Position numbers and translations under genes: made by a program. A DNA stretch of 64,000 bases, taken from positions 23,296 through 87,295 of the forward strand of contig CAWGHH010000001.1 in the NCBI GenBank assembly GCA_963822405.1, written 5' to 3'. The notes beneath the pieces are model-generated. The model was not told the DNA's origin. It saw only the letters and a program-made list of their open reading frames with translations, and ran no database searches. The first letter of the stretch is position 1. Every line of letters starts with the position of its first letter. Positions 3,445-38,141 of this stretch are shown here, one piece after another. This DNA comes from Candidatus Uhrbacteria bacterium (GTDB taxonomy: Bacteria; Patescibacteriota; Patescibacteriia; UBA9934).

Positions 3445-3554
3445 CCGTCAACGCCCAGCCAAAAACTGGGCGTTAAGTTTATATAAAAAGCACCCGCCTA
3501 CACTGACCTACTGGTCTGTGTGGCGGGGCTAAGCTCCGTCTGAGCTCTGACGTG

Positions 3555-4541
3555 TTACTTGGCTTCGGCCGTGCGCAAGTCCGTAGCCAGGATGGCGCGT
3601 TCCACGGCTTCGGCCATGTCCCACGCATCCACGTTGGTACGGCGCCCGCGCCGTTCGCTCTTGCGAGTCTGCCAGGCAAGGAGGAAGCCGGACGAGTGGG
3701 CGAACCAACCGTTCCCGCCGCTACCGATCGTTTCGCCGGCGCGCTCGATCACCTCACGGATAAGCGGGTGATCCATGCGCGTGCGCTCACTGTCCTTCCG
3801 GCGGACCACGATGTTGTCCTTGTCCTCCACGATCACCACGGCGCGGATGCCGTAGTTGCGGAAGAGGACGAGCTGGACGAACTTGATCGGGTCAAAGCAC
3901 AAGGCGACCTTTCCTTCTTCCCGAATGATGATCTTCTGCTTCCTGATCGCTCGGGCCACGTTGGCCTCCGCGTTCATGTAAGCGATCTTCTGACGGACGT
4001 ACAAGCGCAGGTAGTCACGCGCGAAGCACACGAGCTGGTAGTCCGCCCACTCGGGGGACTCGCCAATGCTCTCCGCCTGCTCCCACATGATCCCAACCAT
4101 GATCCGGAAGGTCCCGATCAAGGAGTGATCTGTGATGAACTCGGCGTCGCTCTCGGTCAGGTTCGGGACGATCATGCGGATCCCTTCGGACCCGTACGCC
4201 TCCTGAGAGTCCAGGAACTGCGCGAGGGGCTTGAGCGCGTCCATGATGCGTTTGTCCTCGGCCAATGCGCCGTAGGTCTGGAGAACGGCCTCGAATGCCG
4301 AGTGTACCCGGCCTTCACCGTCTACCTCGCCCTTGAAACCCACACCGCCAGTGTTCAGATCGACTGCGACCTGCATGGGACCCATGTGCCCGTTCCACTC
4401 CGCGTCCATGAAATAGACCTCCGCGTCATTGAACTCGGGGACCAAGCTCATGAACAGGGCTACCGCGAAAGCAGAGTCCGCATTCACACCGCGATGGGTG
4501 TAGATGCGGGGCTGCGAGCTCGCGAGCCCGCTCGCCGACAT
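3555..4541 (-). CDS. Divergent MYG1/UPF0160-like metal-dependent hydrolase homolog
   Basis: The 328-aa minus-strand ORF sits in a GC-rich segment. Its N-terminus IYTHRGVNADSAFAVALF resembles the MYG1 motif THNGTFHCDEALACALL, and its C-terminus WFAHSSGF resembles FVHASGF. Several metal-ligand positions are not conserved. The overlapping 375-aa plus-strand ORF has the low-complexity L/R/V/D/H-rich composition of an antisense GC-rich ORF. Confidence 0.35.
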   Translation of the reverse strand: MSASGLASSQPRIYTHRGVNADSAFAVALFMSLVPEFNDAEVYFMDAEWNGHMGPMQVAVDLNTGGVGFKGEVDGEGRVHSAFEAVLQTYGALAEDKRIMDALKPLAQFLDSQEAYGSEGIRMIVPNLTESDAEFITDHSLIGTFRIMVGIMWEQAESIGESPEWADYQLVCFARDYLRLYVRQKIAYMNAEANVARAIRKQKIIIREEGKVALCFDPIKFVQLVLFRNYGIRAVVIVEDKDNIVVRRKDSERTRMDHPLIREVIERAGETIGSGGNGWFAHSSGFLLAWQTRKSERRGRRTNVDAWDMAEAVERAILATDLRTAEAK

Positions 4542-4714
4542 TCATCGGCCGTTCCTGCTCTGACATACATCACCTCGATTGCTGGGGTTTTCGAACTATT
4601 CCGCTGGCCAGCCTTCGCCGAACCAACCGCGAAGCATAGCAAAAATATGGCCCCTTGTCCATCCCCTTATAGGAGGTGAGACTTGCCAATTTCGCTAATC
4701 TTAGATAAAGTTAT

Positions 4715-21041: not shown

Positions 21042-21308
21042 TTATTTCTTCGCCTTATTGAGCGCGAGCATTGTTCGGCTCTTTACGCGATCAACGGTGT
21101 TACGTTTCATGAGGTTCTGAGTAACGGCCTTGTCTAGCATCTGGCCGAGATCGGTCATGAGCTTCGTGGCTTCATCGAACTTCTTCGCTTCGACAAGCTT
21201 ACGGAGTGTGCGACGAGTATAAGCAATCTTAGCTTTAGCATCAGAGTTACGAGCACCACGAACCTTTGACTTACGGAGTGCTTTTTCTGCGTTCTTGAGA
21301 ATTGGCAT
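21042..21308 (-). CDS. rpsT: 30S ribosomal protein S20
   Basis: MPILKNAEKALRKSKVRGARNSDAKAKIAYTRRTLRKL...MLALNKAKK, characteristic S20. Confidence 0.85.
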   Translation of the reverse strand: MPILKNAEKALRKSKVRGARNSDAKAKIAYTRRTLRKLVEAKKFDEATKLMTDLGQMLDKAVTQNLMKRNTVDRVKSRTMLALNKAKK

Positions 21309-21492
21309 AGTGTATTAAAACGGCATAGCCGTCCTTACAGCGCATTGGCGCCGTAGCAATCCGGCTAAGCCGGACCAGTAAATTAGTGCGGGAACTATAG
21401 TGAAAAAAGGGAGGGAAGTCAAGAAAATGAAAACCCCCACCTCTGGCCGCCCGTTGGGCCGGAAGTGGGGGATATGATGTTCTGATATCAGC

Positions 21493-23658
21493 TCAACTTC
21501 CTGGACCTCTGCGGGGTTTTCCGAGAAAATCAAACCAATCGATCCAGCCAATACCAGTGTAGGCCCGCTGAGGCTCGCGGGGCAATCGAGTGTCTTCGTC
21601 GCAAGAGCTACGATACTCATGTCTTGTTCTAGGAGCAGGGAGACACAGCTGAATGGCAGCCTTGGCTTCTTCGATCGTTTCGTACCTATCGTACTTATCC
21701 TGTGGCGGCTTTGTTTGACCGAGAAAATCGCACCAATCAACCCAACCTTTTCCGGCGTAGGTTGTATTGGGATTACTATGCAACCGAGGATCTTGTTTGT
21801 AGACTTTATCGTAGTCCCTTCCCACCTTCGGTACCGGATTCAACAGCTGCACGGCCGCCTTGGCCTCTTCGATCGTTCTGTATTTCTCCTGCGGTCTTGT
21901 CTGACCGAGAAAGTCATACCAATTGATCCAACCTGTATCAGCATAATGTTCATTGGGCGTGACGGGCAACCGAGGATCTTGTTTGTAGACTTTATCGTAG
22001 TCCCTTCCCACCTTCGGTACCGGATTCAACAGCTGCACGGCCGCCTTGGCCTCTTCGATCGTTCTGTATTTCTCCTGCGGTCTTGTCTGACCGAGAAAGT
22101 CATACCAATTGATCCAACCTTTTCCGGCGAATGTTTGACGGGGATTAGACGGCAACCGAGGATCATTCATGTAGACGTCCGAATACTCCGGCTCCGACTT
22201 CGGTACCTGATTCAACAGCTGCACGGCCGCCTTGGCTTCTTCGATCGTTTCGTACTTCTCCTGCGGCCTTGTTTGGCCGAGAAAGTCATACCAATCGATC
22301 CAACCACATTCAGCGTAGATCTTTTGAGGTCCAGACGGCAACCGAGGATCATTCATGTAGACGTCCGAATACTCCGGCCCCGACTTCGGTACCGAGTTCA
22401 ACAGTTGCACAGCCACCTTTGCCTCATGGTAGCTGTAGAAAGGAACACTGAGTCGTTCAAGTACCTCGATGAGATCTCGAACATCCTCACTAAACTCAAT
22501 CATCCAACCCGTGTCGCTCACCACGATTCCCTCGGGTTTTTCGGCTTCACCAATGTGTTTGGTGATTTCGAGCTTGAGTTCGTTGACGGCGATGATGCGG
22601 TCGCAGTTGGCAACGAAGTCGAGGACGGTGATGCGGTGCTTGAGGGGAGTCTTGCGCGTTCCGCGTCCGAGTTGCTGAAGCCAGACCGTCATGCTGTCCG
22701 TTGACCGCAAGAACAGAATGAGCTCGGCATCAGGGATGTCTACGCCCTCGTTCAACTTATCGACAACGAAGATGGTTTTGAGCACTCCATCACGAAAGTC
22801 CTGGAGCGTCTGCGCCATCACTTTGATAGGCAGCTTAGAGTGGTACGGCTTCGCATTCGGGAATTGCGCCAGCACCATATCAAGATGCGTAAGCGAGTTA
22901 CAGAAGATGATGGTCTTCTTCACTCCCTCACCCTCAGTCCTGGCAATGCGCGCAATCTCCTCAAGGCGTTCCTCAAGGAAAATCGTGTCGTCAATTTGCC
23001 GGCGGCTGACGGTTCGATCGCCACCCGTAATCTTACGGATGAGCTCGCGCAGCTTCTTGATGCTGATGTTGTCCGTCATCACCTTGTAATCCACTTGCGC
23101 CAACCAACCGTCCGCAATGCCGCGGGCAAGCGGGTAGCTGTAGACTTCCTCTCCAAAGATGTCGCGAATGTCCTGACCGTCCATACGGTCTGGCGTCGCG
23201 GTCATCCCAAGGAGGAACTTGGGCGTGAAGTGCTCGATCACTTTCTTGTACTGCACCGCCTGCCCGTGGTGGGCCTCGTCAACAATGATGTACGTGAAAG
23301 CGTCCGGCAGAAACTCGTCCAGCATGTTCAACATGGTCTGGAAGGTGACGAAGAGAATCTGCGCGTCGGTATTTTCCGTTTCCGCACTCGTGATGATCCC
23401 CGTTCGGCGAGAACCATCAAATGCTTCGTCGAACTCCTTCCGCGCTTGACGAAGAATATCCGTCGTGTGGGCAAGAAAAAGCAACTGCTCGTTATCCTTC
23501 AAGTGTGTACGTGAGAACCGAGCTGACACCACAGTCTTTCCAAGGCCGGTTGCAAGCACAATAAGCGCGCTCTTGATCTCTTTGGCAACCATGACATCGA
23601 GCGTTTCGAGCACATCGAGCTGGTAGGGACGAAGAAGCTTTTCCGCAGTGATGCTCAT
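21493..23658 (-). CDS. Superfamily-2 helicase (type III restriction res-subunit/DEAD-like ATPase) with five C-terminal tandem repeats of about 63 aa
   Basis: N-terminus: Walker A ATGLGKT, DEAH box IIVDEAHH, motif III GMTATP, motif VI QQLGRGTR. C-terminus: 5 repeats TIEEAKAAVQLLN.VPK...Y..VY..DPRLP..P...YA..GWI.WYDFLGQTRPQEKY. Confidence 0.7.
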   Translation of the reverse strand: MSITAEKLLRPYQLDVLETLDVMVAKEIKSALIVLATGLGKTVVSARFSRTHLKDNEQLLFLAHTTDILRQARKEFDEAFDGSRRTGIITSAETENTDAQILFVTFQTMLNMLDEFLPDAFTYIIVDEAHHGQAVQYKKVIEHFTPKFLLGMTATPDRMDGQDIRDIFGEEVYSYPLARGIADGWLAQVDYKVMTDNISIKKLRELIRKITGGDRTVSRRQIDDTIFLEERLEEIARIARTEGEGVKKTIIFCNSLTHLDMVLAQFPNAKPYHSKLPIKVMAQTLQDFRDGVLKTIFVVDKLNEGVDIPDAELILFLRSTDSMTVWLQQLGRGTRKTPLKHRITVLDFVANCDRIIAVNELKLEITKHIGEAEKPEGIVVSDTGWMIEFSEDVRDLIEVLERLSVPFYSYHEAKVAVQLLNSVPKSGPEYSDVYMNDPRLPSGPQKIYAECGWIDWYDFLGQTRPQEKYETIEEAKAAVQLLNQVPKSEPEYSDVYMNDPRLPSNPRQTFAGKGWINWYDFLGQTRPQEKYRTIEEAKAAVQLLNPVPKVGRDYDKVYKQDPRLPVTPNEHYADTGWINWYDFLGQTRPQEKYRTIEEAKAAVQLLNPVPKVGRDYDKVYKQDPRLHSNPNTTYAGKGWVDWCDFLGQTKPPQDKYDRYETIEEAKAAIQLCLPAPRTRHEYRSSCDEDTRLPREPQRAYTGIGWIDWFDFLGKPRRGPGS
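21782..22119. repeat. Perfect 152-bp direct repeat (186-bp period) inside the helicase C-terminal repeat array
   Basis: The sequence aaccgaggatcttgtttgtagactttatcgtagtcccttcccaccttcggtaccggattcaacagctgcacggccgccttggcctcttcgatcgttctgtatttctcctgcggtcttgtctgaccgagaaagtcataccaattgatccaacct occurs at 21782-21933 and again at 21968-22119. The whole array, about 21600-22450, is made of diverged copies. Confidence 0.7.
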
Positions 23659-23752
23659 GACACACTCCTAAATCAAATTGTGAAGGAATTTCTGGGACTA
23701 TTTGAAGCGACAGAACAGAGATATTTACCATCAAAAGAGTGATTTCGTCAAT

Positions 23753-24811
23753 CTAAATTAGCCATTCACTAACTAGTCGATCAACCGAAATGGCCGGTTT
23801 GATGCCAGATTTCATGGCCAGGTCCAGTTTTTGGGCGAGGGCGTGGGTTTTGGCAAGGTCGATGGCGGCCCAGGAACGAACCTCGGCCAGGAGCTTTTGG
23901 GCAACAAATGGGTGAATAGCTAGTAGGGAAGCGATGTCTTGTTTTTGAGCCTTAGGATTGTCGTCGAGAACTGAACGAGCCTGAATAAGTAGACGAATTT
24001 GGCGAAGAAGCATGCCGAACAAGGCAAAATCGTCGCCACCTGCTTTACGCTCGCTGAATAACTTGTCGAGTGCCTTGCGCGGGACAGGCGAGGCAAGCGC
24101 GTCCATAAAGCCAAAAATGTCGGCCTCGTAATCCGCGCGCACGAGTAAATCAACCATTTCCATTGTTACCGGTTCATGTCGAGCGTATGCCGAAAGTTTT
24201 TCTAGCTCGCCACCAGTTCGCCAGGCGTCATCTTTGGTTCGTCGTAATATCTCATCGAGTACCGACGGCGTGATAGTAAGACCGAGCTTGACCACACGCT
24301 CACGCGCCCAAGCAATTAGTTCGGCGCCGGCTAAACGCGGAAGGGGATATGTGTGCACGTTCGGGAGAATCGATAATGTCTTGCCGAGTTCTTTCTTGGA
24401 AAAGTTTTCAACCGACAAATCATCTGAAAAAATTACAACGCTAGACTCTGGCGCTCGCTCGAACCCCGCAATCCACGGCTTCGCTTCCGCCTTTGTTACA
24501 GACTCGACCAAACCAGTGATAATAATTAGTCGTTTCTCAGATAAAAATGGCGAGGCCTGAACCGCATTTAAAATCTTCCCAGGCTCAAGATCAGACTTCG
24601 CCGTAATCACAAACTCATCGACATTCATTGCCGCTGGGTCATATTTTTCCAAGAATTTCTTTTTGAGATCGTCGACGCGTTCTTTTACGCGTAAGTGATC
24701 GTCACCGTAAACAAAGAGGAGCATACAGGGAGGGCCGACATAGAAGTCGGCCCATACAATACACCACGTTTGACCCTTCATGGGAAGACGGAGTAACGTT
24801 TCGCGGTGCAT
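23753..24811 (-). CDS. holA: DNA polymerase III delta subunit
   Basis: N-terminal region (LLFVYGDDHLRVKERVDDLKKKF...) and clamp-loader C-terminal helical domains fit the delta subunit. The likely true start is the internal Met of MLLFVYG. holA neighbouring rpsT is a conserved arrangement. Confidence 0.65.
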   Translation of the reverse strand: MHRETLLRLPMKGQTWCIVWADFYVGPPCMLLFVYGDDHLRVKERVDDLKKKFLEKYDPAAMNVDEFVITAKSDLEPGKILNAVQASPFLSEKRLIIITGLVESVTKAEAKPWIAGFERAPESSVVIFSDDLSVENFSKKELGKTLSILPNVHTYPLPRLAGAELIAWARERVVKLGLTITPSVLDEILRRTKDDAWRTGGELEKLSAYARHEPVTMEMVDLLVRADYEADIFGFMDALASPVPRKALDKLFSERKAGGDDFALFGMLLRQIRLLIQARSVLDDNPKAQKQDIASLLAIHPFVAQKLLAEVRSWAAIDLAKTHALAQKLDLAMKSGIKPAISVDRLVSEWLI

Positions 24812-25427
24812 GTCTGGAGGGAACTTGAGCTCAACACCGCGGCAGCTTGTACATAATCGGGAAACCCGTCGGAAGGTGATGATTGTTCTCTATGCGCTCG
24901 GCATGGATCTCAAAACCATTTGGGAAGTCATGGAAAGCATTGGCGCTGATCCAAAACAAATTCGACGGGATCTCAAGCACGTTAGAAATGCTTTGACCCC
25001 CGGAACGGATCCATATCGCGTTTTGCTTTTCACTCTGGCACTCGTGACCATGGAAGAAAAGTATCAGAACATGGCCAACGGTGAAGTGATTTTGTTCAAA
25101 GAAGCCCTGGAAGTATGGTGCGAGATCGACAAAGTGATCACCGGCTCGATCTGGGCATTGCACGCCCTCTTGATTGAGCATGAGATCGGCCTGGGCGAGG
25201 GAGTAGCGCCAGACTTTTTCGTTCACGAGGTATTCAAGGTGTTCCTTGATCCAACAACTGACCTGGAAGATCTCCCCGGCGACGAAGATGAATTTGATGA
25301 TTTCATCGTGAGTGCGGTTGTGAAGTTCGTAAACGCGCTCATAACGCCTGAGAACGTGAATGATCGCGAAGTAGACAATAGCCCGTTTGGCGGCAAGGGC
25401 TGGGGAGCTGCTGAAGGCGAAGGATAA
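24780..25427 (+). CDS. Hypothetical protein with an acidic C-terminus (true start probably MIVLYALG, about 24879)
   Basis: ORF only; no recognisable motifs. Confidence 0.35.
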   Translation: MGRRSNVSRCMSGGNLSSTPRQLVHNRETRRKVMIVLYALGMDLKTIWEVMESIGADPKQIRRDLKHVRNALTPGTDPYRVLLFTLALVTMEEKYQNMANGEVILFKEALEVWCEIDKVITGSIWALHALLIEHEIGLGEGVAPDFFVHEVFKVFLDPTTDLEDLPGDEDEFDDFIVSAVVKFVNALITPENVNDREVDNSPFGGKGWGAAEGEG

Positions 25428-25451: not shown

Positions 25452-26012
25452 GTGGCACAGCCCGGGCGTCGATATTTTTTGGTAAACTGTGCGTATATGA
25501 ATCCAATCGTCGCCTTAGTTGGCCCTTCCGGGGCTGGCAAAACTAGCCTAATAGATCGAGCTGTGGCGGCCATGCCAGACAGATTTGATCGAGTCATCTC
25601 ATTCACTACTCGAGCAAAAAGAACCGAAGCAGATTCTTTGTATTACGAATTTGTCTCGCGCGAAGAAGTGGAAAAACGTAAAGCCGACGGCATTGTCGTG
25701 CAACTGGTCGAGTTCAACGGAAATTATTACGGAACTGATAAACCGCATGTTGAAGGTGTACTCAAAAACAAAATCGGCATTCTCGCTGTTATTGAACAAG
25801 GGATTCAAACTTACATCGACGCCGGAATTCCTATTGTCGTCGTGAAAATCGAACCGGTCGGTTACAAAACTCGGGAAGGTCGAGCCGAGGCCGACAAATT
25901 ACGCGAGCAAATTCCGATCAAAATAGATAAAACGATTATAAATAATTTCAGCGAAGGGGGACTTGAGCGCGCCACCCATGAGCTCGTTGAATTCTTGCGA
26001 ACTTGCGAATAA
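25452..26012 (+). CDS. Guanylate-kinase-like P-loop nucleotide kinase (paralog 1)
   Basis: Walker A VGPSGAGKTS, then FTTRAKRTEADSLYYEFVSREEVE...FNGNYYGT, which matches the GMP-kinase TTR..R..E..G..Y.FVS...F......F.GN.YGT pattern. Confidence 0.55.
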   Translation: MAQPGRRYFLVNCAYMNPIVALVGPSGAGKTSLIDRAVAAMPDRFDRVISFTTRAKRTEADSLYYEFVSREEVEKRKADGIVVQLVEFNGNYYGTDKPHVEGVLKNKIGILAVIEQGIQTYIDAGIPIVVVKIEPVGYKTREGRAEADKLREQIPIKIDKTIINNFSEGGLERATHELVEFLRTCE

Positions 26013-26048: not shown

Positions 26049-26615
26049 ATGAAGACCAACGAAGAATCGAGGTCCAATGAATCGTTCATCATTGCGCTTG
26101 TGGGAGGAAGCGGAGCAGGCAAGAGCGTAATCGCCGAAGGAGTGACGGAGAAACAACCTTGGCGGTTTGGCCTGTTGCCCGGCTTCATGACTCGGTCGTT
26201 TCGCAAGGGCGAAGACAAACTGAACCTGGAAATCGTTCCCCACAAAGAAGGCCGCAAACGATTCGAAGCGTTCAAGGCAGGGGACACCAGCCTGTTCGTA
26301 AACGTATCCGAATGTACGGGAACGTATTACGGGAATACGCGGTTGACCGTTGATACGTTTTTGAAGCGGCGCCTCGCTATCAAAGACCTGAACGTAGACG
26401 GCGTGATCAACCTCCGGAAGGCTGGCTACCGCGTGGACGTAGTGTTCGTACAGCCAACTGGTCACACCCCACGTCCGGGTCGGGAAAAGATCGATCTCCT
26501 CGAGGCCGCTCGATATCCGAGTCTCGAACCAAAATTTACGGTGTTCACAGATCACCGCAATCGACGGTTCGATCCGACTCGCTGCATTCAACGCATTCTG
26601 GGAGAGTACAGCTAA
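26049..26615 (+). CDS. Guanylate-kinase-like P-loop kinase (paralog 2, divergent)
   Basis: VGGSGAGKS; FMTRSFRKGEDKL; CTGTYYGNT. Same fold family as the upstream gene but only distantly related to it. Confidence 0.5.
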   Translation: MKTNEESRSNESFIIALVGGSGAGKSVIAEGVTEKQPWRFGLLPGFMTRSFRKGEDKLNLEIVPHKEGRKRFEAFKAGDTSLFVNVSECTGTYYGNTRLTVDTFLKRRLAIKDLNVDGVINLRKAGYRVDVVFVQPTGHTPRPGREKIDLLEAARYPSLEPKFTVFTDHRNRRFDPTRCIQRILGEYS

Positions 26616-26703: not shown

Positions 26704-27455
26704 TCAAGAAAGCTTCTTCAGATGAGATGACTTGAGAAGCGATTTCATCTGAATAATGGCAGTGTCGTTCAGCGCCATCAGTCGATCAGATTGCACCAAG
26801 CCTCTGCGAATGAACTCCGCGTTCAAGCTTTCAAGGTTCGCCAAACACACGAGTTGCACCACATCAGCGTGATCACGAACGTTGCCAGGAAGCTTCCGGT
26901 TCTTATCGCGCCATTCTTTTGCAGTAAATCCAAAAAGCGCCTTATTCAAGACATCAGCTTCGGATGCGTAAATTTGCATCGCAGCCGCCTTTGATATTTT
27001 TGCGGGAATGATATGTTCCTTGATTGCATCGGTATGGATGCGATAATTCACTTTTGCTAGCATGCGCTTAGTATCCCAGCCTAATGCAAGACGTTCCCCC
27101 TCCTCTTCTTTCATCCGTTGGAACTCTTTGATCAAGTAGAGCCGAAACTCTACGTTAATCCAAGCGGCAAATTCAAATGCGATGTCCTTATGAGCAAAGG
27201 TTCCGCTGTTATATCGGCCCCGTTTAGAAATAATCCCTTTTGCCTGAGTCGCCGTGATCCACCTACTCGGTGTCAGCGAAAATCCGTTTGATCCGGCCTC
27301 ACTTCTAAACCCATCGAATTCGATGGGTTAAAAACCGGATTTTCGAAACACTTTACCAAGTCTTCGCCAATAAAATAATTATGTGGCAACCAAAAACACC
27401 CGTCGCCATACTTATTGAGGATGAGTACCTCGCAAAGATGATGAAGAGTGTGTTT
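26704..27455 (-). pseudogene. Bro-N/KilA-N domain (phage antirepressor-like) gene remnant, frameshifted and without an ATG start
   Basis: The frame of 26704..27135 extends stop-to-stop to 27327 as ...SKRGRYNSGTFAHKDIAFEFAAWINVEFRLYLIKEFQRMKEEE, the Bro-N core motif. The preceding N-terminal part (...NKYGDGCFWLPHNYFIGEDLVKCFENPVF...) lies in a different frame at 27273-27452. No ATG is present, and the tracked ORF starts at TTG. Confidence 0.4.
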
Positions 27456-32362: not shown

Positions 32363-32438
32363 TGGGGTGGCTAACGGGAATCGAACCCGTACTAAAGGCA
32401 CCACAAGCCTTTGTGATAACCGTTTCACTATAGCCACC
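32363..32438 (-). tRNA. tRNA-His (anticodon GUG) with an encoded G-1
   Basis: The reverse complement is G-GTGGCTA TA GTGAAACGGTTATCAC A AAGGC TTGTGGT GCCTT TAGTA CGGGT TCGATTC CCGT TAGCCAC C CCA. The extra 5' G can pair with the discriminator C73. Confidence 0.75.
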
Positions 32439-33188: not shown

Positions 33189-33752
33189 ATGGTCGCCGAA
33201 TTACTCGCTTTGGAGGTTCCCATGTTCGCATTGTTCCTGCTTGGTTCCGCGTTCGCCGGTGACGCATTTGTTCAGCTCCAGGCTGATACTGCGGTTGCTC
33301 TGGCTGATAGAGTTGTCGACGAGCGCGTCAAAGTGCTCATCGAGAAACCACTCAACGAAAAAGTGAGTTTGAGCGTCTTCACGCTCGTGAGTCCGGCATA
33401 TGGCGAGCTGATCGTCGGTCCGACACTTCACGTCCAGAAACTGGCACTCAATGTCAGTATTGGGATCGAAACCGCGGACATGCCACTCCGTGGTGAAGTG
33501 TACATTTTGTGGGCTAATGATCGCTACACGTTCCTCGCCTCCGCTGAAACCGGTGGCTCCGGTCCTTGGTACGTCGGGTATGCTATCCGCACTATCGGAC
33601 ATCTCACCGTCGGCGTGTTGACGCAGAGGTTCGACGGTATCGGGCCACGAATCGGCGTCACGTCACACGGCTTCGAGCTGTGGACCTCGCCGATGTACGA
33701 CTACGAAGACGGTACAACGAACATCGTCTCCGGCATCAGCTGGATTCCGTGA
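33189..33752 (+). CDS. Secreted hypothetical protein, at the start of a GC-rich island
   Basis: Signal peptide MFALFLLGSAFAG (an internal start at about 33222); beta-rich composition. A competing antisense ORF 33201..33602 is shorter and looks like junk. Confidence 0.35.
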   Translation: MVAELLALEVPMFALFLLGSAFAGDAFVQLQADTAVALADRVVDERVKVLIEKPLNEKVSLSVFTLVSPAYGELIVGPTLHVQKLALNVSIGIETADMPLRGEVYILWANDRYTFLASAETGGSGPWYVGYAIRTIGHLTVGVLTQRFDGIGPRIGVTSHGFELWTSPMYDYEDGTTNIVSGISWIP

Positions 33753-33873
33753 CATACAGGCAACGCTCGCGTTCCCCACAAAGCCCTGACCGCAATCGTC
33801 GGGGTTTTTCTTTTGCATTGAATAAAGACCGACCCCATCCGAGCGTGCTCGGGCGGGGTCGTTAGGTAAAATT

Positions 33874-34638
33874 CTATTTCGCTCGCACGATGTGGCACGG
33901 CCAGCAGTCATAACCACCCGTAGAAGCGGTGGACACGTAGATCGTGTATGTGGAATCCGACCGTGGCTCAAACCGCTGGTTCATCGGATCTGCGTCGCAC
34001 GTTCGGTAGTCATGTTGGAAATTCAACGTCATTTTCCGAGCACCGGCAACAATGCTGGTCGTCGTCGAGGTGATGAGCGCCCTACACTCAGGTGGGTGTG
34101 ACGGATTCCCCCTCAACAAGTCTTGCATGACTACAAACAGCATGGCCGCCGACGGAACACGCAACCGAATCTTGTACTCTCGCTCGTAGGTCCTGAGGAC
34201 CGTCTCGAGGTTCTCCGTAGCCCCGAAACCGATTCCCTTAACCGGCAAGCAGAAGATGATGTCACCCTCATGAACCATCTCGTCGCCCACGAGCGGCGAA
34301 TGTTCACCCGCAATCCGCGGACCGTCACCGGCCTCCAGGTCACGAGCCGAAGCCGCATGGAGAAATGACCGATCCTTCAGAACTCGCCAAGCCACGTTAC
34401 CGTCCCAACCCAGGATTTTGGCCGGCACGGCATACTTTCGGTACATGGCCTTCAGATGGTCCGGTACGGATTCGAGAGAAAGCGGAGTCGCCCATGGGGC
34501 AGAAACCAACTCTTCCCGAAAGTTCTCGGCCCACCTCCTCACGTCTGCCGGGTGCTGAACGATCAGGAGCAAATCCCTATCATCCGTCTCCCTCAGAAAC
34601 TCAGCCAACTCCCGAGGCGTTACATACTCACGTCCCAT
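33874..34638 (-). CDS. Hypothetical protein, GC-rich island
   Basis: 254-aa ORF with no motif recognised. Confidence 0.35.
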   Translation of the reverse strand: MGREYVTPRELAEFLRETDDRDLLLIVQHPADVRRWAENFREELVSAPWATPLSLESVPDHLKAMYRKYAVPAKILGWDGNVAWRVLKDRSFLHAASARDLEAGDGPRIAGEHSPLVGDEMVHEGDIIFCLPVKGIGFGATENLETVLRTYEREYKIRLRVPSAAMLFVVMQDLLRGNPSHPPECRALITSTTTSIVAGARKMTLNFQHDYRTCDADPMNQRFEPRSDSTYTIYVSTASTGGYDCWPCHIVRAK

Positions 34639-34760
34639 GACTACTCCTTCTGTCCGTGTTCGGACTACAAACGGCTTGTGCCGCAGGGAAGGCGGATTGA
34701 GTCCGGCTTCAAAAATAATTTATCAACTTTCACAAATATTGGCAAACATAAGCTAATTTC

Positions 34761-36287
34761 TTGACACTGCTCAAAATTTGGCCAACAATCGCCCTAGTTC
34801 ATTCGAACTGGGAGGTTTCCATGGATCAGCCGTTTGTTCTTTGTGGCACGATCAATGACCGTCTTCATGGTGGAGTTAGCATCACCAAAGAAGAACGCGG
34901 GATCATCAATCATCGCAGTTTTCTTCGACTTCACAACATTCGCCAGCTCGGTAATCTGTATCTAGTGTTCCCATCGGCAACCCACACCCGTTTCGAGCAC
35001 TCGATCGGAGTGATGGATCTGGCGGATCGGCTGTTCTTGGGTGCTAAACTCGAAAGCAAAAAGTCCGCTGACTCGCTGGCGCCGCTCGACACGGCTGGGC
35101 CGGGCGTAGGAGTGCGATTGTATGAGCTCGACAGCAAGGTCGAAGAACAGTTGCGTCGAACACTACGAATTTGCGCACTGGCTCATGACCTTGGCCACGG
35201 GCCGTTCTCACACAACTTCGAGCCCTTCACGCCAAAGGTGGAGGAAATTGCGAAGTTACTTGAAGACCCACGTCTAGCAGTCCTTCTGCCGTACCGTGAA
35301 GCGGTGTTGGCGGCGGACAAGCACGGTCGCGTCAAACACGAGGCGATCTCCGTCATTCTGTTCACCATGCTCTGGCTCGACAACTGCCCGGGCGACAGTG
35401 AAATGCCCGCGGCTTTGGCATCAGTACTTTTGGGCGCCAAGCCTGAAGGTGCGGCGCCCGAACTCAAGCCGTGGATTCCGTTCATTCGAGACATCGTCAG
35501 CTCGGCGCCGATTGACGCTGACCGCATGGACTACTTGGAACGGGATTCGCGGGGAGTCGGAACCAGCTACGGGCTCTTCGACCATTCACGGATCTTCAAG
35601 TCAGTGGTGTGCGCAAAAAGTATTGATGACGATTCGTTCCGGCTCGGCTGGCGCGAAAATGGCCTGGCAACGATTGACCACTTCGTCCATGCCCGCTACC
35701 AGATGTTCCGGCAGATCTACGTTCACAAGACGTACCGCGCCATGGAACTTATGCTGGACGAGATCGGTCGGGAAGTAGATACGAACAACTTGTCCCTCGT
35801 GGACACGTCGTCCGTAGACGCACTTGTGAATTCCTATGAACGCCTGACTGATGACCACTTCGTCAGCCTGATCTCCGGGAATACCCCGAGTGATTTGCAG
35901 AAGAACGCGAAGGTCATGAAGCTTGGGCGGGCCTTCAAGAACCGACAGCTGTGGAAACGAGTGGTCGAGTGTGATCTGCGAGATGACGTGGAACACATTC
36001 GCGAAGAACTGAAGAAGAACCACCCGGAAGCAATCCTCATCGCGGACAGTCGGCCACTGAACGCCATGAAGGACATGAAAAAAGCGACCTACCTCATGAG
36101 GAAGACCGCGAACGATCGGTACGTGTACGCCGGCGCCGAAGCCTGGCTTGAGGCCTCAGTGATCCTCAAGGCACTCACCACAACGCCAGAGTCAGCAACT
36201 CGCATCTACCTGGCGCAAACGGGTGAGTCAGACCTCTTGCAGCAATTGCGCCACGAAGCAACCGCCATCATCCTCCGAAAACGTTAG
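34761..36287 (+). CDS. SAMHD1/dGTPase-family HD-domain dNTP triphosphohydrolase-like protein
   Basis: PFVLCGTINDRLHGGVSITKEERGIINHRSFLRLHNIRQLGNLYLVFPSATHTRFEHSIGV aligns almost position-for-position with the SAMHD1 block [50 protein letters not shown]. Further down, LAHDLGHGPFSH (HD motif) and DADRMDYLERDS. The true start is probably the internal Met of MDQPFV at about 34821. Confidence 0.65.
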   Translation: MTLLKIWPTIALVHSNWEVSMDQPFVLCGTINDRLHGGVSITKEERGIINHRSFLRLHNIRQLGNLYLVFPSATHTRFEHSIGVMDLADRLFLGAKLESKKSADSLAPLDTAGPGVGVRLYELDSKVEEQLRRTLRICALAHDLGHGPFSHNFEPFTPKVEEIAKLLEDPRLAVLLPYREAVLAADKHGRVKHEAISVILFTMLWLDNCPGDSEMPAALASVLLGAKPEGAAPELKPWIPFIRDIVSSAPIDADRMDYLERDSRGVGTSYGLFDHSRIFKSVVCAKSIDDDSFRLGWRENGLATIDHFVHARYQMFRQIYVHKTYRAMELMLDEIGREVDTNNLSLVDTSSVDALVNSYERLTDDHFVSLISGNTPSDLQKNAKVMKLGRAFKNRQLWKRVVECDLRDDVEHIREELKKNHPEAILIADSRPLNAMKDMKKATYLMRKTANDRYVYAGAEAWLEASVILKALTTTPESATRIYLAQTGESDLLQQLRHEATAIILRKR

Positions 36288-36335: not shown

Positions 36336-37181
36336 TTACTTTTTCTTCCTCGGCAACAGTTTCACTTTCTTCTGCACAAGTTTATGAATGTGTTCTTCGG
36401 CCGGAAGGTCCTCTGGCATAGTTCCATCGAGCTTTTCGATCGTCTCGCGAACAATACGACCAACCCGGCGGTGCGTGGCACTTGCCATTTCTTCGTTCCG
36501 GATATTGTCTTTCTTGAGAAGGGCGTCTGTCTGAGTAATGCGGAATAAATTCGCCGCAAGCTCCTCCGAGCCCGCATAATCAAGTAGATCGCCTTTCGCA
36601 ATTCCTTTCTTTTTCTTGATTTGTTCTTGGGTCAGATTATAAAGACCCAAATAACCCGCATTATTGAACTTCCCAAAATTTTCAACGCCCGCAGCCTTAG
36701 CGGTCTTCGCCAGCCGTACATTTTTATGAGAAACATCTTGTCGAATGAACATTCGCTTACCGTCATCATCAAGCATCTCAAACAACTCTTGTTTGCGAGT
36801 CTGCACGGCGAAATAGGTTTGCGCAAAAGCGATCTCAGGTTTTCGTGGATCGCCGTTTTGGGCGACGAGATAACAAGCAAAACGAGAGAGATGATAATCG
36901 AGCAGTTTTCTCTTTGTATTTGAACCGATATCAACCATTTTACCGGCGCCGGTAAAATGGTCTTCGATTGCCTGTTGCGTAGACACGCAAACAGCCTTCG
37001 CTCGAAGAATTGCTTCTTGAAACTTCTGCCACTTGGCATACCCAAGTAAAGGCATCAGCTCTCTCGCCTCCCAATATTCAAAACCGTTCTCGTCGACTTT
37101 CTTGATCGACTCGAAATCCTTATGTAGCGAAACCGGCACAATGTTATTGTTCGGCATATGTTCGTATAGTAGCATAAACAA
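36336..37181 (-). CDS. dinD: DNA-damage-inducible protein D-like (DinD; Bro-N-related N-terminus)
   Basis: [38 protein letters not shown] and [15 protein letters not shown] closely match E. coli DinD ([52 protein letters not shown]). Confidence 0.7.
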   Translation of the reverse strand: [281 protein letters not shown]

Positions 37182-37211: not shown

Positions 37212-38141
37212 CTATTTTGCCTTCTTCTTATCATGAAACTCTTTGTACACGCGTCCGAGTTCCTTATCCGTAATGTGCGTGTAAACCTGCGTCGTCGTAA
37301 TCGACTCATGGCCGAGGAGGGATTGCACCGCGCGGATGTCGGCGCCGTTGCGTAGGAGGTCGGTCGCGTAGGTGTGACGCAATGTGTGTGGGGTGACACG
37401 CTTAGTGATGCCGGCCAGGCGGGCGTAGCGGTCGACGATGCGTTGCACCGAGCGGGGAGTGAGCGGATGAGAAGTGGTCGATGAGTGCCGAGCGCGGTCG
37501 TGTCGAACAAATAAGAATGGGGAAGTGTCTTTGCGATGATCGAGATATGCTTTGATCGCTCGTCGGGCATCCTCCGACAAATATACAACGCGATGTTTCT
37601 TGCCTTTACCGAGCACCGTGAACTCGTCGCGCTTCAGATTGATGTTATCGATCTTCAAGGTCGATGCCTCAGACACACGCGTGCCGGTCGAAAAGAGCAG
37701 CTCGAGCAACGCCTTGTCACGGTAACCAACAATTGTCGGGTCACTTAGAGGACCAGCTCGAAAACGCTCGAACTCCTCAGACTCGAGGAAACTCACGTTA
37801 CGAGTGCCCTGTTTGGCAAGCTCGATTTTCTCCGCGGCCATACTCTTCACATCACGCTTGGCGAGGTACTTAAGGAATGATCGAAGAGCGATTAAGTGAT
37901 AGTTCTGCGTATTCTTCTTCAAGTTTGTCTCTTCTCGACCAGAAATGTCCCGATTTAGGTGCAAACGGTAATTTCGCACCATCTCCATCGTAATTTCCTG
38001 TGGATTAGGGTGCTTTGCCCAATCCGAAAACCTGGTTAAGTAAAAATGGTAGTTCTTAATTGTCTTATCAGACCGTCCGCGTTCAATTTCAAGATATTCA
38101 AGGAATTCTTTAATATATTTGGCAAGTATATTCTTTGGCAT
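37212..38141 (-). CDS. xerC: Tyrosine recombinase, XerC/XerD family
   Basis: N-terminal SAM-like domain. Catalytic residues in order: R (LLFSTGTRVSE), K (LGKGKK), HxxR (HTLRHTYAT) and the Tyr nucleophile (LLGHESITTTQVYTH). Confidence 0.75.
   Translation of the reverse strand: MPKNILAKYIKEFLEYLEIERGRSDKTIKNYHFYLTRFSDWAKHPNPQEITMEMVRNYRLHLNRDISGREETNLKKNTQNYHLIALRSFLKYLAKRDVKSMAAEKIELAKQGTRNVSFLESEEFERFRAGPLSDPTIVGYRDKALLELLFSTGTRVSEASTLKIDNINLKRDEFTVLGKGKKHRVVYLSEDARRAIKAYLDHRKDTSPFLFVRHDRARHSSTTSHPLTPRSVQRIVDRYARLAGITKRVTPHTLRHTYATDLLRNGADIRAVQSLLGHESITTTQVYTHITDKELGRVYKEFHDKKKAK

Follow-up and report, generated by a model that had tools for sequence, protein, structure and literature searches.

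A putatively inserted superfamily 2 helicase gene with a mosaic INT_rpt repeat array between holA and rpsT of Candidatus Uhrbacteria

In this study, we describe a helicase gene in a stretch of 64,000 nucleotides from Candidatus Uhrbacteria bacterium (assembly GCA_963822405.1, contig CAWGHH010000001.1, positions 23,296 to 87,295 of the forward strand), hereafter called the window. The open reading frame (ORF) at 21493..23658 on the minus strand is an intact and complete coding sequence of 721 residues, in which a superfamily 2 (SF2) motor is followed by five tandem repeats of the INT_rpt family. The best explanation, and one that we consider rather probable, is that the gene encodes an accessory, nuclease-free DNA translocase which was inserted at the holA-rpsT junction and is probably targeted by its recombining INT_rpt array. 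The motor would hydrolyse ATP to translocate on or remodel DNA, and the array, which occupies the place of the SauUSI-type target-recognition domain (DUF3427) and for that reason probably targets the motor, would tether or direct it to some feature of a nucleic acid or to a partner protein. The full-length AlphaFold model has a mean predicted local distance difference test score (pLDDT) of 90.5, with values above 90 in the motor region, and the protein is divided as follows (window coordinates; the repeat units were delimited by Pfam and by a hidden Markov model (HMM) derived from the family).

23185..23637, minus strand: RecA-like domain 1, Pfam ResIII (3e-36), residues 8-158, with Walker A motif GLGKT and the DEAH box
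22654..22935, minus strand: RecA-like domain 2, Pfam Helicase_C (2e-12), residues 242-335, with motif VI QQLGRGTR
22462..22599, minus strand: linker from motor to array, residues 354-399, from the secondary structure of the AlphaFold model
22276..22461, minus strand: INT_rpt unit 1, residues 400-461
22090..22275, minus strand: INT_rpt unit 2, residues 462-523
21904..22089, minus strand: INT_rpt unit 3, residues 524-585
21718..21903, minus strand: INT_rpt unit 4, residues 586-647
21520..21705, minus strand: INT_rpt unit 5, residues 652-713, the most divergent

An intact SF2 motor spans residues 8-353, with two RecA-like domains and with motifs Q, I, II, III and VI all preserved as Q13, GLGKT at 38-42 (GxGKT), DEAH at 127-130, TAT at 153-155 and QQLGRGTR at 328-335 (QQxGR at 328-332, then R335). 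These motifs are invariant or almost so across an alignment of 86 homologs, and together with the Pfam matches they uphold the first-pass annotation of this DNA, made from its letters and ORF list, in describing a complete N-terminal DEAH-box SF2 motor of the ResIII kind. By its sequence the motor belongs with the ResIII group, which includes SauUSI, type I HsdR, RadD and XPB, and it is thereby a motor of the dsDNA-translocase group. A phmmer search of the PDB sequences with the protein gave 7clg as the best match (1e-37), followed by the HsdR fragment 3h1t, RadD and XPB, and Foldseek with the full model returned the same ranking, with SauUSI (7clg) at 5e-21 ahead of RadD and XPB, and with XPB/TFIIH structures among its best matches. 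The best PADLOC match, mREase_IV (1e-48), is limited to positions 221-568 of a profile of 945, which correspond to the motor, and all PADLOC matches (18/18) are partial in the same way and cover the motor only. Pfam detected no nuclease domain anywhere in the 721 residues, therefore the protein cannot restrict DNA alone, and the target-recognition domain DUF3427 (PF11907) had no Pfam match in it. The linker behind the motor contains, in the model, a helix, a short strand and the start of a helix at residues 391-404.

Five units stand in tandem in the array and recur every 186 nt (62 residues), unit 5 being shifted by four extra residues, and the family-derived HMM recovers the same five units as Pfam does. 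The five C-terminal repeats reported at first reading are thus confirmed with a unit of 62 residues, but the motif then called strict is slightly degenerate, reading DPRLH in unit 4 and DTRLP in unit 5. The units belong to Pfam PF14882, INT_rpt (integrase repeat unit), with 125.9 bits and an E-value of 7e-37 over five stretches (gathering threshold 26.5 bits), whereas the helicase-associated (HA) domain PF03457, of which they had seemed reminiscent, showed no Pfam match at E <= 1 and was rejected. The family was formerly named PHINT_rpt (repeat-modelling table, PMC8078820). A model of a single unit has a pLDDT of 88.3 and is all-helical, like each of the units, with a first pair of helices of 9-10 residues and a shorter second pair of 4-5 residues. 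No solved structure like INT_rpt was recovered from the PDB, in which a profile search gave chance matches to designed repeat proteins only and Foldseek with the unit model gave nothing at E <= 10; against BFVD, Foldseek gave weak matches only, to SF2 helicases of giant viruses (E 0.04-0.8). Three of the BFVD entries, A0A1V0SLK7, A0A2H4UVX6 and A0A1V0S9X9, are SF2 helicases of Klosneuvirus, Bodo saltans virus and Catovirus, and the likeness of the giant-virus helicase segments to the INT_rpt unit is weak (Foldseek E 0.2-0.8, probability 0.77-0.97, TM about 0.7).

An exhaustive search with the INT_rpt profile returned 5558 cluster representatives, in which the repeats are found with PF13009 integrases (6-17 repeats, N-terminal), with other SF2 helicases, in stand-alone arrays and in a conserved sigma-70 fusion. 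Across homologs of the window protein the units are mainly basic, with a median isoelectric point (pI) of 9 and a net positive charge in 72%. The company of recombinases, helicases and a sigma factor, together with the mostly basic units of the homologs, points indirectly to a role of the array with nucleic acids.

A word-indexed homolog search yielded more than 3000 homologs, mostly from Patescibacteria, and the details given here come from the best 120. Nearly all of these combine ResIII, Helicase_C and INT_rpt, with repeat numbers ranging from 0 to 8 (mode 4-5); their sources are named, among others, as Uhrbacteria, Magasanikbacteria, Nomurabacteria and 'Patescibacteria group', and relatives bear the NCBI label 'integrase repeat-containing protein'. 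Among the matches listed, the nearest non-self homolog is 45-52% identical. The gene therefore joins a large architecture that is catalogued but uncharacterised and is not a one-off. Relatives outside the candidate phyla radiation (CPR), from Streptomyces, Brevibacillus and Phocaeicola, are proteins of about 1050 residues composed of PLDc_2, motor and DUF3427, and further non-CPR relatives join Mrr_cat to the motor; the proteins of Patescibacteria start straight at the motor, without a nuclease domain. Members of the CPR clade carry, C-terminal to the motor, INT_rpt, HNH_repeat (PF18780, 5-6 copies) or DUF4379 zinc ribbons (PF14311, 1-4 copies), examples of the latter two being L009, L010, L007, L004 and P0114 from Saccharibacteria, Nomurabacteria and other Patescibacteria. 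The CPR motor thus appears, from these domain orders, to show modular swapping of arrays at one C-terminal position. Homology between INT_rpt and HNH_repeat was considered and is not demonstrable (hhalign probability 24%).

A further architecture joins a sigma-70 factor (r1.2-r4) and a DnaA-C-like helix-turn-helix to the helicase and INT_rpt array in proteins of 1049-1126 residues. It was found in homologs P0081 and P0097, which are 44-49% identical over both halves. In P0097 the fusion gene (locus L093, 5001-8381) shares its locus with genes for a ParB_N-N6_N4 methylase, an SNase and a PDDEXK protein, and the locus looks like mobile DNA. Six homolog loci were compared, and they represent six different housekeeping neighbourhoods, as follows.

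MiaB and ThrRS
Der and RNase III
RuvC
Glycosyltransferases with TyrRS/TrpRS
CTP synthase
Wzy

The first-pass annotation had suggested looking in such neighbourhoods for methyltransferase or nuclease partners; neither a recurrent methyltransferase or nuclease gene nor any other conserved partner was found in the six loci.

At the DNA level, the array is distinguished by long exact repeats, located as follows.

21966..22120: 155-bp tract, copy 1 in gene order, comprising the last 31 nt of unit 2 and the first 124 nt of unit 3 (exact-repeat search)
21780..21934: 155-bp tract, copy 2 in gene order, comprising the last 31 nt of unit 3 and the first 124 nt of unit 4 (exact-repeat search)
21935..21965, minus strand: unit-specific 31-nt loop of unit 3, the P-x-x-P-x-x-x-Y region (unit comparison)
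22147..22192 and 22333-22378: second exact tract, 46 nt, common to units 2 and 1 (exact-repeat search)

The maximal exact repeat (21780-21934 = 21966-22120) slightly exceeds the 152 bp of perfect identity recognised before, which were correct in themselves. The helicase array is the sole family of exact repeats of at least 30 nt in the window, therefore chance is excluded. The head of unit 3 is the head of unit 4 (124/124 nt) and its tail is the tail of unit 2 (31/31 nt), but its 31-nt loop has only 42-45% identity with the loops of units 2 and 4. Tandem duplication of a whole unit and a single unequal crossover were rejected as the origin of the tract, since either event would carry a loop too and unit 3 has a loop unlike that of the unit on either side; conversion tracts fit instead, and the identical tract is consistent with a gene-conversion mosaic crossing the unit boundaries. 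The recent recombination proposed from the first reading therefore stands, with gene conversion as its mode and without duplication of a whole unit, which had been offered as the other possibility.

The window gene is not alone in this respect. Exact tracts of 100, 85, 59 and 59 nt were found in four other family members (L003, L088, L086 and L087, respectively), of which L088 is a complete genome (CP064964.1); these tracts are offset by one or two repeat units, and the longest one begins right after the loop in 3/4, as in the window gene, the tract of L087 including the loop. Moreover, 192 of the 451 units in the 120 listed homologs have their nearest neighbour within their own protein. Taken together, these sequence comparisons indicate that concerted evolution is a property of the family. 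Recurrent intragenic gene conversion or unequal recombination evens out the flanks of the units and leaves the short loop unit-specific, and it accounts for both the 155-bp identical tract and the family's range in repeat number.

On either side of the helicase gene lie rpsT (21042-21308, minus strand) and holA (23753-24811, minus strand), and its neighbourhood further includes RmuC, a pair of guanylate-kinase-like genes and polA; beyond these, the window has ordinary chromosomal content such as YchF, PNPase and tRNAs. Relatives were gathered with a holA probe, the syntenic block running from polA to holA, rpsT, RmuC and two secreted proteins, and they are arranged at this junction as follows.

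L091: holA 82% identical; rpsT follows holA with a 40-nt gap
L090 (GCA_041660165.1, Patescibacteria group bacterium): holA 80% identical; rpsT follows holA with a 174-nt gap
L084: holA 56% identical; rpsT follows holA with a gap of about 100 nt
P0263 (JGI 3300050046): holA 66% identical; a different gene of 200 residues, on the other strand, follows holA
L089 (independent assembly of the same organism, 99.95% nucleotide identity): holA 100% identical; the helicase follows holA
21427..23752 (approximate), minus strand: DNA present in the window and missing from the holA-rpsT gap of L090, L091 and L084 (junction alignments)

The helicase is not present in the loci of L091, L090 and L084, where holA and rpsT are directly adjacent. 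By parsimony the adjacency of holA and rpsT is ancestral and the helicase is therefore a lineage-specific insertion, in line with the impression at first reading that the gene looked inserted. Neither a target-site duplication nor a transposase, integrase or recombinase was visible at the insertion in the junction alignments. The holA-rpsT junction may be a recurrent insertion point. In the P0263 contig, the junction gene of 200 residues is unannotated and a gene of 385 residues lies between rpsT and RmuC. The holA ORF of the window as listed (23753-24811) has 352 residues from its first start codon, and its homologs of 323-342 residues align from residue 27-28, so it is probably some 25-30 codons too long at the N-terminus.

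The third-position G+C content (GC3) of the helicase gene is 0.633, versus 0.507 for holA and 0.517 for rpsT, in agreement with an insertion, as are the six different contexts of the homolog loci. The following local signals were recognised.

23665..23669, minus strand: Shine-Dalgarno-like AGGAG, 6 nt 5' of the ATG (read from the sequence)
21434..21471, minus strand: probable intrinsic terminator after the helicase, a GC-rich hairpin followed by UUUUCAUUUU (folding energy)
21394..21422, minus strand: rpsT promoter-like site TTGACT-17-TATAGT (promoter scan and alignment of relatives)

Upstream of the helicase the promoter scan found no consensus sigma-70 promoter reaching 9/12, thus the gene may be co-transcribed with holA. 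The 81-nt terminator region behind it has a minimum free energy of -31.7 kcal/mol (z -3.4), and its hairpin was overlooked by a consensus scanner because the loop exceeds 8 nt. The rpsT promoter-like site lies directly downstream of this terminator, and its core CTTGAC...CTAT is invariant in 3/3 relatives (L091, L090 and L084). Two ORFs over the repeat array, one of 361 residues at 21619-22704 (plus strand, antisense) and one of 141 residues at 21315-21740 (minus strand, another frame), are shadow ORFs produced by the repeated sequence and not genes. The family-derived HMM found neither a second helicase paralog nor a further INT_rpt protein in the window.

Several observations weigh against the reading of the gene as an inserted translocase targeted by a recombining array. 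The 155-bp tract was read from a short-read metagenome assembly and has a provisional copy number, and the preference for insertion over loss rests on parsimony across four relatives, in one of which (P0263) another gene occupies the holA-rpsT junction. The units of the window protein are acidic to neutral (net charges -3, -2, 0, +2 and -3; C-terminal pI 6.2), a charge that suits the binding of a protein no less than that of DNA. In addition, no functional treatment of INT_rpt or PF14882 was found in the literature searched, where the family appears only in lists and in the PHINT_rpt table; the first-pass annotation had held its repeats up against a well-known domain with a known function, and they prove to belong to a domain that is catalogued and to which no function is attached.

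Foremost among the other explanations is a role in defence, which the first-pass annotation had raised, together with repair, as a conjecture. The protein would then descend from a type IV restriction enzyme of the SauUSI type and act against phages or mobile elements; its array would sense foreign DNA and its motor would block replication directly or aid an unlinked nuclease. In favour of this, PADLOC and the PDB match the motor best to restriction motors of types IV and I, and the gene is an accessory insertion that evolves fast (nearest homolog 52% identical, versus 80-88% for the holA of relatives) and has a modular and hypervariable recognition position. However, the nuclease domain and a conserved partner in the six loci are both lacking, the neighbours here and elsewhere are housekeeping genes and do not form a defence island, and the PADLOC matches span the motor only; no known PADLOC defence system was matched over its full length, nor were partner genes found here or in the six homolog loci. 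We therefore regard a defence role as unlikely.

Less probable again is a housekeeping helicase of repair, recombination or replication restart, like RadD or XPB, with repeats that would bring it to sites of DNA damage or to the replisome. While the resemblance of the motor to RadD and XPB in structure and sequence, the great frequency of the family in small CPR genomes and the neighbours with roles in DNA metabolism (RmuC, holA and polA) would agree with such a function, the gene is missing at the same locus in relatives with 56-82% holA identity, its genomic position is not conserved, the NCBIfam model for RadD gives 100 bits where its cut-off is 720, and the RadD C-terminal domain is not present.

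A translocase associated with transcription, comparable to XPB in TFIIH or to RapA and working at promoters as a partner of RNA polymerase or of a sigma factor, is very improbable. The sigma-70 fusion conserved between P0081 and P0097, a sigma-70 gene 3 kb from the P0005 helicase and the place of XPB/TFIIH among the best structural matches all lean that way, but the fusion is confined to 2 homologs among the 120 listed, no sigma factor gene lies beside the window gene, and the resemblance of the P0097 locus to mobile DNA tells against it too.

Least credible of all is that assembly or polishing produced the 155-bp identity, and perhaps the number of units too, as an artefact (collapsed or homogenised repeats, or a strain chimera): the exact tract does exceed typical assembly k-mers, and the independent Logan contig of the same organism (L089) does stop at window position 22349, in unit 1, within sequence common to units 1 and 2, but the two copies are separated and three different unique loops flank them, so that no fewer than two copies could connect these loops; moreover, the reading frame is unbroken, and in independent assemblies of other members, one of them a complete genome, exact tracts 59-100 nt long recur, mostly in a matching register. 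The break of the L089 contig inside shared sequence directly demonstrates the assembly hazard of which the first reading had warned, and the number of unit-3-like copies could, given the structure of the repeat, be underestimated. Because short-read assemblies break at the repeat array, copy numbers taken from metagenome-assembled genomes cannot be relied on.

A bolder proposal, which we put forward as speculation with little confidence, is that the nuclease-free SauUSI-type motors of Patescibacteria, with their exchangeable arrays (INT_rpt, HNH_repeat or DUF4379), would form a CPR-wide family of modular, fast-diversifying DNA-targeting translocases, in which the loop (P-x-x-P-x-x-x-Y) of each INT_rpt unit would determine specificity and would be kept diverse by selection while conversion homogenises the scaffold. 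Were this true, the family would carry a repeat-coded recognition array on a motor, for use in nuclease-free defence or in remodelling at promoters or in replication, and the sigma-70 fusions would favour the latter. Independently of this proposal, testable facts have been gained on a widespread family of Patescibacteria, namely three types of array at one site, concerted evolution that mostly spares one loop, and a sublineage fused to sigma-70.

Several features of the window lie outside the helicase locus. The segment 24780-27135 between holA and polA is variable among relatives; it contains ORFs 24780-25427 and 26704-27135, which have no Pfam match, and tandem guanylate-kinase-like genes at 25452-26012 and 26049-26615, of which each relative has one only and the second has a GC3 of 0.62. 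The segment 32363-38141 may be an integrated element; it comprises a gene for tRNA-His (32363-32437), one with an HD domain, a high-GC3 cluster (33189-36287; GC3 0.65-0.67), a Bro-N protein (36336-37181) and a tyrosine recombinase (37212-38141), the last of which could equally be chromosomal XerC/D. Finally, a segment of 1.1 kb at 3552-4679 has a GC content of 0.61 (z +3.3 versus other genes) and long ORFs on both strands, and it gave no Pfam match on either strand and no Rfam match.

Among known systems, the closest solved motor is that of SauUSI (7CLG), an ATP-dependent type IV restriction endonuclease composed of PLDc_2, ResIII/Helicase_C and DUF3427, which resembles the window protein in that one polypeptide holds both the motor and a module C-terminal to it. 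In contrast to SauUSI, the window protein begins at the motor (residue 8) without an N-terminal PLD nuclease, the PLDc_2 domain being present in the non-CPR relatives, and it carries five INT_rpt units instead of DUF3427, which is present in relatives L029, L037 and L038. RadD (YejH) of E. coli (6JDE, 7R7J and 8H5Y) belongs to the same group of SF2 motors, likewise lacks a nuclease and is about 24% identical over some 380 residues; the window protein differs from it in missing the RadD C-terminal domain, in place of which it has the repeat array, and in being encoded by an accessory gene that is not fixed in position. In the RadD equivalog model NF053632 the motor alone aligns (residues 9-353), and the equivalog of EcoAI-family HsdR, NF046051, reaches 141.7 bits where the cut-off is 550. 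The designation as a type III restriction res subunit, given at first reading, reflects the name of the Pfam domain only: Pfam finds no C-terminal nuclease domain and no Mod methyltransferase gene is adjacent, nor are hsdM or hsdS among the window neighbours of the helicase. The nearest methylase-like ORF (1770-2966; UPF0020, N6_N4_Mtase) is about 19 kb from the helicase, with no link evident. Membership in type III Res, type I HsdR, type IV SauUSI and RadD was rejected accordingly, on missing domains or partners or on sub-threshold NCBIfam scores.

With regard to the repeats, the closest parallel is the GmtZ/VPA1269 integrase of Gamma-Mobile-Trio islands (PF13009), which has the same repeat family in 6-17 copies. 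The window array shares 35-40% identity over 93-98% of its length with VPA1269-family proteins from Marinobacter and Pseudomonas plasmids, whereas GmtZ has a recombinase and not a helicase, bears its array at the N-terminus and occurs in proteobacterial hosts. GmtZ is needed for the mobility of the islands in a study that did not address the repeats (bioRxiv 10.1101/2023.03.28.534373). Should the array prove to be a nucleic-acid recognition module, this would also account for the N-terminal arrays of the GmtZ integrases. The HNH_repeat and DUF4379 sister helicases of Patescibacteria have the same motor (37-43% identity), the same motor-first start and tandem C-terminal arrays, but their repeat families differ. 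In HA helicases, too, tandem helical repeats, each of about 60-70 residues, come after an SF2 helicase, but the likeness of these proteins to the window protein is by analogy only. The 'ResIII' label alone is thus no ground for counting the gene in a restriction-modification or defence system, and the gene is to be annotated neither as an HA-domain helicase nor as a restriction subunit, but as an INT_rpt helicase.

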